Below, one piece after another: positions 4,380 to 45,631 of a stretch of DNA of 48,724 nucleotides. Source of the stretch: Candidatus Woesearchaeota archaeon (GTDB lineage Archaea > Nanobdellota > Nanobdellia > Woesearchaeales > ARS49); assembly GCA_014729195.1 (NCBI GenBank), contig WJKI01000013.1, positions 1 through 48,724 of the forward strand. Direction: 5' to 3'. Both the position numbers and the translations under genes were made by a program. Each line of letters starts with the position of its first letter. The first letter of the stretch is position 1. The notes beneath the pieces are model-generated. The model was not told the origin of the DNA, ran no database searches, and saw only the letters and a list, made by a program, of their open reading frames with translations.

Positions 4380-4874
4380 ACCAAATTTAGAACCAGGGTA
4401 TTGTTTTTCCAATTTATCCAAAATTTTTCCCATTTTTGTTTTTTTAACACTCCCTTTTAGTTTTAATATTTTCTTTAATGTTATTATTTCTTCATCAGAA
4501 ACTGTTCTTAGCAAATGAACTTCTTTTGATTGAGTATATGGTTTATTGGTAAATAATGATTCCAGAAATGATTCAATTTCGTAATCCAGATTTGCTGAAG
4601 TTACTATTTTGTCATATTCGCCGGTTTTAATAGATTTAATATGAATATCTAAAGGAATATCTTTTTTGATGCTATCAAGAAAATATCTGCAAATAGCAGC
4701 TTTGACAGATTTGTCATTTATGAGCAAAATATGGTCATTTGGAGCAAAAATCTTGTTAGTTGTTAAGTCTTTTCTCACTCTTTTCTCTATTGTTCGCAGA
4801 AAACACTTGTTACACATAGGACCCAGGTGCTTAAGACCTGTAGTTCCTGAATTTTGACATTTTATGCATTTCAT
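4344..4874 (-). CDS. TtuA/NcsA (Ctu1)-like protein, shortened and lacking the PP-loop
   Basis: N-terminal CxxC...CxxC finger followed by FLRTIEKRVRK. Family-like blocks are present (DKIVTSANLDYEIESFLESLF, LEKQYPGSKF). The SGGKDS position reads INDKSV. Confidence 0.6.
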   Translation of the reverse strand: MKCIKCQNSGTTGLKHLGPMCNKCFLRTIEKRVRKDLTTNKIFAPNDHILLINDKSVKAAICRYFLDSIKKDIPLDIHIKSIKTGEYDKIVTSANLDYEIESFLESLFTNKPYTQSKEVHLLRTVSDEEIITLKKILKLKGSVKKTKMGKILDKLEKQYPGSKFGLFKSSSRTSAV

Positions 4875-5166
4875 TCTTAGTAAAGGGACCTAGTGTTTTG
4901 AGCTAGTTCCCAATCTCTCTTCCTTTACTAATCTGTCATCCTTTTCTATATCCTTTATTAGAAGGAAAAGGACGACATGTTCATAACCTATATTATATAG
5001 TAGTTGTTATACTATATATAAAGGTGGGGGTTACACAGACAAATCCTGCTTCACTACTCCGGAGTAGAGATAAACCGAAAGCTTTATATATAAGTTATAC
5101 TATATATTACACAACAGGGCTGGTGGTAGAAGAATTTTTACCATATTACCAAAATTTTCAATATCT

Positions 5167-24338: not shown

Positions 24339-24383
24339 GAGGTATCGCCAAATAAAATTTGGCGGAACCTCAAAACGGAGGTA
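24339..24383 (+). promoter_or_regulatory. leader hairpin with a decoy SD, an anti-SD and the real SD
   Basis: GAGGT-AT-CGCCAAA-TAAAA-TTTGGCG-GA-ACCTC is followed by AAAACGGAGGTAAAAACA-ATG. ACGGAGGTA occurs twice (24336-24344 and 24375-24383). Confidence 0.35.
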
Positions 24384-39593: not shown

Positions 39594-40664
39594 TTAATTG
39601 ATCACTTCAATACCCAGGCCATCTTCCATTTGCTTGACCGCTTCTGCCTTTCTTTTAACAGCAGTTTGCTGGCCAACAATCCATGGAGAATTAACGCCGG
39701 TAATAATTGTCATAACCATAAGCTTGCCTTTCATATCATCTGCAATCCTTGCGCCCCAAATAACATTAGCGTCTTCATCTAAATGATTAGTTACTAATTC
39801 TCCTGCTTTACTAATCTCTTCCAGAGTCATATCAGGACCACCGCAAATATGAATCAAAGCTCCGGTTGCTCCTTCATATTGAATATCCAACAACGGATTT
39901 TCCAAAGCTCCTTTTACTGCCTCAACAACCCGGTTGTTGGTATCAGAACTGCCAACACCAATTGCGGCAACTCCTCCATTTTTCATTATTGCCTTGACAT
40001 CTGCAAAATCAAGATTCACTAATGAAGGAACAGCAATTGTTTCAACAATTCCCTTGAGCATTGTAGAAATTAATTCATTTGCAACTGCAAAAGCCTGCTG
40101 AATAGGCAAGTTACCTGCAATCTCAACTAATCTGTTATTGTCAATAACAATAACAGTATCAGAATGTTCTCTTAACTGCTCCAGGCCAAACTCTGCTTTT
40201 TCAACTCTTGCTCTTTCAATATTAAAAGGCATTGTTACAGTGCCAATCACAATAGAACCCATATCTCTTGCCAATTGTGCGATAATAGGAGCACTCCCTG
40301 TTCCGGTTCCTCCACCCATTCCTGCACATATAAAAACCATGTCTGAATTTTTCAAAACATCTTTTAAGTCGTTAATACTTTCCTGAGCAGCTTCTGCACC
40401 TTTTTGAGGAAAACCACCACAACCAAGACCGCGGGTTACCTCTTTGCCGATAATGAATTTTTTATCAGCTTCAGTAATATTCAAATGCTGCTGATCTGTA
40501 TTGCATGCAATAATCTCAGCACCTTTGATTCCCCGTTTGTACAACCAGGAAATCATGTTGTTTCCACCACCGCCTGAACCAATCACTTTTATATTTGCCT
40601 GACCAACTTGCAAACCAGCATTTGGGTTTGCGTTTTTTTGCGCGTTTTGCACAAGTATGTCCAT
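39594..40664 (-). CDS. ftsZ: cell division GTPase FtsZ
   Basis: Tubulin signature GGGTGTGSAP, NTDQQHL, and the T7 loop region. Confidence 0.95.
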   Translation of the reverse strand: MDILVQNAQKNANPNAGLQVGQANIKVIGSGGGGNNMISWLYKRGIKGAEIIACNTDQQHLNITEADKKFIIGKEVTRGLGCGGFPQKGAEAAQESINDLKDVLKNSDMVFICAGMGGGTGTGSAPIIAQLARDMGSIVIGTVTMPFNIERARVEKAEFGLEQLREHSDTVIVIDNNRLVEIAGNLPIQQAFAVANELISTMLKGIVETIAVPSLVNLDFADVKAIMKNGGVAAIGVGSSDTNNRVVEAVKGALENPLLDIQYEGATGALIHICGGPDMTLEEISKAGELVTNHLDEDANVIWGARIADDMKGKLMVMTIITGVNSPWIVGQQTAVKRKAEAVKQMEDGLGIEVIN

Positions 40665-40768
40665 ATCTCATCCCCCCTTTTTGGTTTTTGTTATATAATT
40701 CAATCTATATATTCAACTTGCGAAATGTTTATATGCAAGTGGAGTATAATACTTTTTAGAACGAGTTT

Positions 40769-40881
40769 GGGGTGTTTGCGCCAACAAATATCTCAAGAAA
40801 AACCGTCTAACTATCTTAGAACGCCAAACTAAGATTACCAAAATTTTAACGCCAAATTTTAAACGAGTCCGCCAAAACTCG
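40769..40881 (+). ncRNA. candidate RNA with four hairpins, each presenting CGCCAA in the loop
   Basis: The hairpins lie at 40769-40794, 40813-40835, 40845-40863 and 40864-40881. The stems are unrelated in sequence and the loops are CGCCAA, AACGCCAAA, CGCCAAATT and CCGCCAAA. The first stem has three G-T pairs on the + strand. A TATA-like GAGTATAATA lies at 40742-40751. Confidence 0.35.
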
Positions 40882-40963
40882 ATTTAAAATCAATATTTCT
40901 TTATATTTATAAAACAAGTATATAAATATTTTTATGGTAAGAAATATATTTTACAGAATATAA

Positions 40964-41617
40964 TTAAGATTTTCTCGACGGAGATTTTTTTTCTCCCGAC
41001 GCCATTTTTCTAAAAATCTCCTTGCCTTTTTCAGCAGCTTTCTTTATATGCTCTCCGTAATAACCCATGTATGCTGCAATATCCTTGATTCTATTGCCCC
41101 ATTTGTCGATAAAAACAACATCAGTCAAAGGATACTTGTCAGGAACCCTTGGTTCTTCAGCAGGATATCCAATTGGAACCACGCCCAAAATTCGGATATT
41201 ATCTGGGGCACCAATTGCAGAACGCAACTGATCTTCTTCACACGCACCAACCCAACAGGCACCAAGACCTTGAGCATGCGCAGCCAACAAAATATTTTCA
41301 ATCGCAGCAGCAGCATTCTGCAAACAATATAATTTCTCCCCTTTTTCTCCATAAAATCTCTCTGCTTTTCCCGGGTCAGAACAAACAACAATATAAATAG
41401 GAGCATCATTCATCCAGGTCTGCATGCACGCAGCCATGGAAATTTTCTCCCTAATCTTATACTCTGTAACCAAAATAAAATTCCATTCCTGAATATTGCC
41501 TGCCGAAGGAGCTAATCTTGCAGAATCCAAAATATTTCCTATTAATTCAAAAGGAACAGGACGATCCTTGAATCGTCTTATACTCCGCCGGGTCTTAATA
41601 CACTCTAATGCATCCAT
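40964..41617 (-). CDS. nitroreductase-family flavoprotein
   Basis: Contains TRRSIRRF, APSAGNIQ and the fold-typical LAAHAQGLGACWVG. Confidence 0.8.
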   Translation of the reverse strand: MDALECIKTRRSIRRFKDRPVPFELIGNILDSARLAPSAGNIQEWNFILVTEYKIREKISMAACMQTWMNDAPIYIVVCSDPGKAERFYGEKGEKLYCLQNAAAAIENILLAAHAQGLGACWVGACEEDQLRSAIGAPDNIRILGVVPIGYPAEEPRVPDKYPLTDVVFIDKWGNRIKDIAAYMGYYGEHIKKAAEKGKEIFRKMASGEKKSPSRKS

Positions 41618-44932: not shown

Positions 44933-45631
44933 TCAGAATAATTCTTCTGCCTGTGATGTCCACTGACCGCATTCCCTGCTTTTGGTATCAATATCCCAAT
45001 AATAATCAGCGCAATCTGGGACAGTTGAAGCCAGACAAATACCAACATGATTAGAACTAATATCTCCGACTTTAATACCTACTTGTTCACCAATAAAAGT
45101 CTGGCCATAACCAAGATAAGGAGTTTCAACGCCATTTACCCTAAACGCGGCCTTCCTGTTTTTAATATCCAATAACATTACATTACCTTCAATACCTCTA
45201 AACTGAAAATCCTGCGAATAACTAGCACTTAAGCCACTAGGACTCATGTAAGGAATGACATACCCTCCTTTACAACCAGATAATTGTCTAACTGCCTGGC
45301 CAGTACCGGAATAAGCAAAATACAAACCACCAATAGCAACCAACAATACTGCAACAAAAACAACAGCTTCAAGTCTTCTGGAACTAAACCGCTGAAAAAA
45401 ACCAGAACTCCTTGCTGTTTGAGCCTGTCTTCTTTTCCGGCGTGCTGCCTGCACCCGACTCTTTGATCTTGTCTGAGTTCTTCTCTGACGTGCAGCCTGT
45501 GCACGAGCTCTTGTCTTTTTCCCTGATTGCGCCCGACGTCTTGCCCTTGCCTGTTTCTTTGATTGGGTTCGGGTATTGGCTTGTTTCCGGGCGCCGGCCC
45601 GCCTTTTTGCACGAGATTGAGTCTTCATCAA
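44933..45631 (-). CDS. single-pass membrane protein with an Arg-rich cytoplasmic N-tail
   Basis: About two dozen Arg residues occur in the first ~85 aa (RAKRRAGARK...ARARRRAQ...AARRKRRQ). A TM helix AVVFVAVLLVAIGGLYFAY follows, then a ~120-aa Cys-containing ectodomain. Confidence 0.55.
   Translation of the reverse strand: MMKTQSRAKRRAGARKQANTRTQSKKQARARRRAQSGKKTRARAQAARQRRTQTRSKSRVQAARRKRRQAQTARSSGFFQRFSSRRLEAVVFVAVLLVAIGGLYFAYSGTGQAVRQLSGCKGGYVIPYMSPSGLSASYSQDFQFRGIEGNVMLLDIKNRKAAFRVNGVETPYLGYGQTFIGEQVGIKVGDISSNHVGICLASTVPDCADYYWDIDTKSRECGQWTSQAEELF

Follow-up and report, generated by a model that had tools for sequence, protein, structure and literature searches.

A predicted small-RNA family with repeated hairpin loops lies immediately upstream of ftsZ across Nanoarchaeia

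Why should four copies of one hexamer stand side by side just upstream of the cell-division gene ftsZ in an archaeal genome? The question is raised by a stretch of 48,724 nucleotides (nt) from Candidatus Woesearchaeota archaeon (assembly GCA_014729195.1, contig WJKI01000013.1, positions 1 to 48,724), which was analyzed at its full length and is called the window below. The hexamer CGCCAA occurs four times on its + strand, with starts at 40779, 40822, 40850 and 40870 (span 40779-40875). The array is located in the 299-nt spacer between ftsZ and a nitroreductase-family gene, 105-225 nt upstream of the ftsZ start (40664). An earlier, sequence-only reading had proposed that four stem-loops with unrelated stems display this hexamer as an RNA-level motif. 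Our comparisons indicate that the array belongs to a predicted small-RNA family, so far undescribed, that is found across Nanoarchaeia (Woesearchaeales and sister orders) immediately upstream of ftsZ. We have high confidence that the element is a conserved + strand RNA gene.

A BLAST search with the spacer matched relatives in which the CGCCAA cluster is present alongside. With a covariance model trained on 7 sequences, 35 of 77 family genomes gave exactly one match each; with a second model, trained on 31 sequences, 34 of 151 genomes drawn from across the order gave a single match. Strict filters were applied in both cases, so these counts are lower bounds. The window itself is matched at 40756-40904, with 168 bits for model R1 and 146 bits for model R2. 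An ftsZ homologue lies 72-180 nt from the RNA, on the opposite strand and with the RNA oriented away from it, at 60 of the 61 loci found by the models, and the single locus without ftsZ is interrupted by a contig end. ftsZ adjoins every covariance-model match with a readable flank.

Among 401 genomes of a phylum sample, 102 contained a match to a pattern of three CGCCAA copies, compared with about 13 for the reversed control; false positives in coding sequence account for some of the 102. Within other orders of the class, 12 of 13 pattern matches were again beside ftsZ. Public records with homologous loci carry the names Candidatus Woesearchaeota or Candidatus Nanoarchaeia archaeon. Occurrence outside Nanoarchaeia was rejected, the pattern matches in Bathyarchaeota and Huberarchaeum being unrelated direct repeats. 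A contig labelled uncultured Methanosarcinales archaeon (L184, CAZSRD010000006.1) carries at 4560-4880 a typical hairpin array, together with an ftsZ that shares 72% identity with that of the window; this contig is probably Woesearchaeal and was binned into a Methanosarcinales metagenome-assembled genome. The alignments (A1-A3) and the BLAST, family-level covariance, 5S, pattern and membrane-protein tallies include unpublished genomes (G003, G012, G027, G097, G098, G099 and G474), which are not the sole basis of any conclusion, since all patterns recur both in the remaining genomes and among public records.

Comparison of 40650-40980 with Rfam at E values up to 10 returned only two chance-level matches (PrfA and RAGATH-11). 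At gathering scores, a scan of the whole window returned tRNAs only and no family for the element, and no published description of it was found in the literature. The genes on the two sides of the spacer are as follows.

Positions 39594 to 40664, - strand: ftsZ (356 amino acids), the constant partner gene of the element, with Pfam Tubulin/FtsZ GTPase and FtsZ_C domains.
Positions 40964 to 41617, - strand: nitroreductase-family gene (Pfam PF00881), a neighbour in about 60% of the loci (partial synteny).

The conserved feature is a structure rather than a plain sequence repeat. In the 31-sequence alignment, 87.7% of the cells are paired versus 33-48% in slid controls, and in the 42-sequence order-wide alignment the values are 89.4% versus 38-52%. 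Both alignments show compensatory change in 25 of 26 pairs, and 0 of 500 shuffles reach the score of either. Compensatory changes affect 13 of 13 modelled pairs of hairpin 1 and 12 of 13 of the terminal hairpin. Fitting the alignments to the model biases them towards the structure; given the effect size and the raw sequences, there is nevertheless no doubt about the RNA-level structure. The sequence-only proposal of an RNA-level motif is supported by the conserved loop and the covarying stems.

The same data bear on an explanation at the DNA level, in which the array would be a set of duplex-DNA operators, a cruciform or a chance cluster. A position upstream of the ftsZ promoter would suit regulator binding sites, but the stems vary freely with complementarity kept and only the centre is conserved, which is the reverse of a palindromic operator, and the G·U strand bias of the first hairpin (see below) also speaks against an operator. 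As for chance, the array is the only site in the 806-kb genome with at least three CGCCAA copies within 200 nt, about 1e-4 such clusters are expected genome-wide, and the element is conserved across the class. We regard this explanation as extremely improbable. CGCCAAA is not enriched genome-wide (103 occurrences versus 122 for the reversed control), formally an outcome that the sequence-only reading had listed as speaking against its motif; genome-wide frequency does not bear on a local, conserved array.

The wobble pairs indicate which strand is folded. The first hairpins (50 among 61 RNAs) contain 73 G·U versus 5 A·C pairs, indicating that this hairpin is selected on the + strand only. Among the same 61 RNAs, the middle hairpins show no strand bias (14 G·U, 15 A·C) and the last hairpins are almost purely Watson-Crick (12 G·U, 9 A·C); the middle and last hairpins avoid both kinds of wobble, as expected if folding is needed on both strands. 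The + strand forms a far more stable fold than its shuffled versions (z = -4.05), whereas the - strand does not (z = -0.58, and -1.18 in another - strand run). The earlier proposal of a + strand transcript is supported by the wobble counts of the first hairpin, by a canonical archaeal promoter upstream and by a T-rich end, and remains a prediction. The predicted RNA and its parts are listed below.

Positions 40758 to 40902, + strand: predicted small RNA of about 145 nt, from a conserved tAGAAc start to a T-rich end (covariance-model match, predicted fold).
Positions 40758 to 40808, + strand: 5' domain, in which a basal helix of AGAACG with CGUCU encloses hairpin 1 (minimum-energy fold).
Positions 40767 to 40796, + strand: hairpin 1 (H1), a stem of 12 base pairs (bp) with three G·U pairs and the hexaloop CGCCAA at 40779-40784 (minimum-energy fold).
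Positions 40813 to 40835, + strand: hairpin 2 (H2), 7-bp stem ATCTTAG/CTAAGAT and a 9-nt loop with CGCCAA at 40822-40827 (minimum-energy fold).
Positions 40845 to 40863, + strand: third CGCCAA (40850-40855), with a weak proposed stem TTTAA/TTAAA.
Positions 40857 to 40889, + strand: terminal hairpin (H4), 13-bp stem TTTTAAACGAGT/ACTCGATTTAAAA and a loop with CGCCAA at 40870-40875 (minimum-energy fold).

The ends of the small RNA were placed from the promoter spacing and the T-rich tract. H1, H2 and H4 are recovered in the minimum-energy fold, and the third stem of the sequence-only reading is not. That stem consists of five A-U pairs and is absent from the predicted folds, so the third CGCCAA is probably single-stranded; at this site, close relatives have CGCCAA or a decayed form of it. 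By-eye comparison shows equivalents of the basal helix in relatives (AGAAGUC/GACUUC and GAACGA/UCGUUC). The 5' UAGAA (40758-40762) and the 3' UUUCUA (40896-40900) of the RNA are complementary and conserved in relatives, with some apparent covariation (UAAGAA/UUCUUA, AUAGAAA/UUUCUAU). These complementary ends could form a closing helix, or could merely reflect the start region of an opposing transcript on the other strand.

That opposing transcript is suggested by the promoters predicted around the array. Features in this part of the spacer, including elements that combine a transcription factor B recognition element (BRE) with a TATA box, are as follows.

Positions 40705 to 40714, - strand: probable proximal ftsZ TATA box, reading GAATATATAG on the - strand, back to back with P1; a TATA-like box is found at the equivalent position in relatives.
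Positions 40722 to 40735, + strand: P1, predicted promoter of the small RNA, BRE/TATA GAAATGTTTATATG, which fits the pattern [AG]AAA..TTTATAT and is conserved in relatives.
Positions 40893 to 40902, + strand: T-rich tract ATATTTCTTT, a likely + strand termination signal that overlaps the predicted start of the opposite transcript; AATATTTCTTT-like tracts after the last hairpin are conserved.
Positions 40919 to 40932, - strand: P2, convergent predicted BRE/TATA promoter, reading AAAATATTTATATA on the - strand and fitting, at 40920-40932, the same pattern as P1.

The sequence-only reading had pointed to a TATA-like GAGTATAATA (40742-40751); the promoter that is conserved is instead the BRE/TATA GAAATGTTTATAT at 40722-40734 of the + strand. 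The pattern [AG]AAA..TTTATAT occurs at only 51 sites in the genome, of which 48 are non-coding and 30 lie at most 120 nt upstream of an open reading frame (ORF) on the same strand; the proximal ftsZ TATA box, inferred from sequence, falls outside this strict pattern. The position of P1 implies an RNA start at the conserved tAGAAc near 40758. P2 is predicted to start transcription near 40896-40899, in the direction through the array towards ftsZ. Archaeal RNA polymerase terminates at oligo-T tracts. A + strand BRE/TATA was found 46 nt before the first loop (interquartile range, IQR, 45-47) at 37 of 61 loci, and a - strand BRE/TATA 45 nt beyond the last loop (IQR 42-46) at 45 of 61 loci. The wrong-strand control, a + strand BRE/TATA beyond the last loop, gave 0 of 61. 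The array is flanked by a facing pair of predicted canonical promoters, placed in mirror symmetry about its first and last loops. The strict pattern also occurs elsewhere in the genome, for example at C53:5089 (+) and at C60:1393-2251, with four sites within 900 nt; further non-coding RNA genes may be indicated by those BRE/TATA sites that lack an ORF within 120 nt.

The conserved P2 raises the possibility that only the ftsZ-sense (-) strand matters. The array would then act in cis as the leader of an ftsZ transcript from the distal promoter, and a protein of the antiterminator type would read it as in ANTAR systems. The spacing between P2 and the array is conserved, the hexaloops belong to hairpins arranged in tandem, and on the - strand UUGGCG follows U-tracts. 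In ANTAR loops, position 1 is A and position 4 is G. Of the ANTAR dual-hexaloop features, the sense loop UUGGCG has only the G at position 4, and the first hairpin is selected on the opposite strand, its wobble pairs becoming mismatches on the - strand; the comparison covered the loops and strands, no search for an ANTAR protein having been made. Moreover, the - strand folds no better than shuffles, and P1 equals P2 in canonicity and placement. This reading is therefore quite improbable.

We favour a reading that uses both promoters, in which a convergent sense/antisense pair controls the leader of an ftsZ transcript from the distal promoter; our confidence in it is tentative and falls a little short of even. 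P1 would fire the + strand small RNA away from ftsZ, and P2 would fire the ftsZ-sense strand through the array. The P2 product would be a long ftsZ leader, or a short countertranscript, with hairpins displaying UUGGCG. The small RNA and the P2 transcript would meet by loop-loop kissing, and pairing, collision of the converging polymerases or both would set the amount of distal-promoter transcript that reaches or expresses ftsZ. The small RNA is probably an RNA-level brake or switch on ftsZ. The antisense pair is the most economical reading because of the mirror-image promoters, the Watson-Crick hairpins, a loop pair known from plasmids, the constant location upstream of ftsZ and the failure to find targets in trans. 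Of the proposals made in the sequence-only reading, a multivalent kissing-loop RNA fits best. Its suggestion that the transcript is antisense to ftsZ and the nitroreductase gene stands only with respect to the predicted long ftsZ leader, as there is no overlap with either reading frame.

The loop pair is identical to that of CopA/CopT of IncFII plasmids (RF00042) and of the Inc RNA/repZ leader of the IncI-alpha plasmid ColIb-P9 (RF01087). In the CopA match from R100, the antisense-RNA loop consensus is UCGCCAAA, and in the PK-repZ match from ColIb-P9, the loop of the repZ leader hairpin has UUGGCG. The 5'-rUUGGCG-3' loop motif is named in the literature (Asano et al., 1998, J Biol Chem 273:11826). 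In the plasmids as at the ftsZ locus, the countertranscript has CGCCAA and the strand that runs into the regulated gene has UUGGCG, and the promoters converge to give overlapping transcripts, which for ftsZ are predicted from the conserved promoters. There are also differences. The ftsZ element is chromosomal, archaeal and tied to ftsZ, whereas the plasmids control a replication gene. Its hairpins, 2-6 in number, share one loop, whereas the plasmids use one main kissing hairpin, and the loop word varies from lineage to lineage. The elements resemble each other neither in sequence nor by covariance model; no leader peptide was found, nor a conserved pseudoknot partner near the ftsZ start. The CCAAAA that precedes the ftsZ Shine-Dalgarno site was rejected as a pseudoknot partner of the repZ type, because only some genera have it.

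Several points weigh against antisense control. Both promoters, both ends and the read-through to ftsZ are predictions, and a long leader is dispensable if ftsZ, as is probable, has a proximal promoter of its own. Loops that are identical within one RNA are no requirement of cis-antisense pairing, which also leaves unexplained the constancy of the full hexamer across the order and its concerted change between lineages, which suggests a separate co-evolving partner. On the ftsZ-sense strand, some lineages have UCGG in place of a UUGG of the YUNR type. C·A mismatches would arise in the first hairpin on the - strand, and its selection on the + strand only is left unexplained by the antisense pair. 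Archaea generally lack RNase III, so an outcome of the plasmid type is not assured. The identical loops, the concerted change of the hexamer and the + strand-only first hairpin point to another partner that binds the loops, in addition to the antisense transcript or in its place, with a protein as the simplest candidate.

In the family, the RNA has 2-6 hairpins with unrelated covarying stems and one lineage-specific hexamer. CGCCAA loops are found in Woesearchaeales and several other families, CACCAA in the three loops of genome G028, GCCCAA in three families, and ACCCAA, YCCCAA, AGCCGA and UGCCG(A) in one family each. The core common to these words is NNCCRA on the + strand, equal to UYGGNN on the ftsZ-sense strand. 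In the main rival to the antisense pair, the RNA would be a platform that presents several binding sites to a dedicated RNA-binding protein, in the role of scaffold, sponge or ribonucleoprotein, with one protein or subunit per loop and a drifting specificity that all loops follow. Co-evolution with a trans partner predicts just such a concerted change of the hexamer within one RNA, and a platform would agree with the identical loops on unrelated stems and with the + strand-only selection of the first hairpin. However, no candidate protein was found, the genome has no other pool of loop-displayed CGCCAA for sponge competition, and the conserved convergent P2 and the pure Watson-Crick pairing of the other hairpins are left unexplained. 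We consider the platform possible but unlikely. A nearby arginine-rich membrane protein (44933-45631, -) was rejected as a loop binder, its distribution being too narrow (6 of 41 relatives). The N-terminal tail of this protein, about 85 residues long and rich in Arg, Gln and Ala, resembles arginine-rich RNA-binding motifs; two matches in other genera (G007 and G012) cover its C-terminal domain only.

The sequence-only reading had compared the array with sponge RNAs. CsrB/CsrC and RsmX/Y/Z likewise have many hairpins with unrelated stems, one short motif and a species-variable number, but their motif is GGA and that of the ftsZ element is NNCCRA. In contrast to them, the ftsZ element is fixed beside one gene with a convergent promoter, and its motif has no matching pool among mRNA leaders; a CsrA-like partner is not known for it, a search for CsrA homologues not having been made. 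CGCCAA in hairpin loops elsewhere in the genome is at background (10 of 218, versus a permuted-word mean of 4.6%), so a regulon of loop-displayed CGCCAA was rejected, and the sponge proposal finds no support in target sites.

Could the loops instead pair in trans with a cellular RNA that bears UUGGCG, such as mRNA start regions, rRNA or tRNA, in the manner of RsaE/6C or RNAIII? The loops are C-rich and partly anti-Shine-Dalgarno-like, the archaeal 16S '915' site reads AAUUGGCGGGGG, and in G028 the ftsZ start region has GGGGGUUGGUGAAAAAUG and the loops are CACCAA. However, TTGGCG near start codons occurs at background (3 of 813, rank 32 of 60 among word permutations), as does its wobble-tolerant form (4 of 818), and ftsZ mRNAs of 12 lineages, examined from -70 to the stop codon, contain no consistent site complementary to the loops. 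The 16S 915 site was rejected as partner because G028 keeps UUGGCG there despite its CACCAA loops. Helix 11 of 16S was at first promising in two genomes, but its sequence is UUGGUG in most lineages, with UUGGCG in two genomes, and does not follow the changes of the loop word. Pairing in trans is thus improbable. Other conceivable roles for the loops are as mimics of a T-loop or of the CCA end of tRNA, or as a proline codon plus A that tRNA-Pro would read; all that the variants have in common is the core CCRA.

DicF small RNA of E. coli inhibits ftsZ translation, and the small RNA 6C has been linked to cell-division phenotypes. DicF is similar to the ftsZ element as an RNA-level brake on ftsZ, a role that is proposed for the element; it differs in being trans-encoded on a prophage and in pairing with the ftsZ ribosome-binding site, whereas no complementarity to the proximal ftsZ mRNA was found for the ftsZ element. 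6C of Actinobacteria (PMC6486639), RsaE/RoxS and RNAIII are also small RNAs with at least two hairpins whose identical C-rich loops are the active sites, but those loops pair with G-rich ribosome-binding sites of many mRNAs, and no such target set was found for the ftsZ element.

A role as 5S rRNA substitute was also rejected: 33 of 41 family genomes have 5S, including carriers of the hairpin RNA, and relatives that carry both RNAs show that one does not replace the other. No 5S rRNA was found in this genome even at E <= 1; it is probably absent from the 90%-complete assembly.

Some further observations concern other parts of the genome. The sequence-only reading had pointed to a complementary TTTGGCG at 24358-24364. 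It pairs with CGCCAAA at 24346 to form a local 7-bp hairpin (24346-24364) that belongs to the leader of a gene for a 413-amino-acid protein without Pfam match, and nothing connects it to the ftsZ element. A second ftsZ (C5:7137-8192), 75% identical to that of the window, is without the CGCCAA array and is preceded by a different large hairpin, AAGAGGCUC...GAGAGCCUCUU (L294), without Rfam match, which recurs upstream of an ftsZ fragment in G086 (L252:300-480). The genome bin has two 16S/23S rRNA sets (C19:5424-10743 and C46:509-6495) with 16S genes about 81% identical, the C46 copy showing higher identity (86%) to a family relative; the probable source of one set is a second organism or a misbinned contig.

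Little is known about FtsZ regulation in archaea, especially in DPANN. Reduced genomes of about 0.5-2 Mb keep a dedicated non-coding RNA and a facing promoter beside ftsZ class-wide, which argues for an important function. A broader possibility, which we put forward with reserve and think unlikely to hold in full, is an ancient RNA-level control of division across this DPANN class, in which convergent transcripts with several identical kissing loops would gate FtsZ synthesis, possibly together with a co-evolving loop-binding factor, and CGCCAA/UUGGCG would be an independently arisen fast-pairing device. If the antisense reading is true, an array of identical kissing hairpins would to our knowledge be unusual, and enterobacterial plasmids and archaeal chromosomes would have converged on one loop pair. 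The element offers a testable handle on division control in uncultivated episymbionts.
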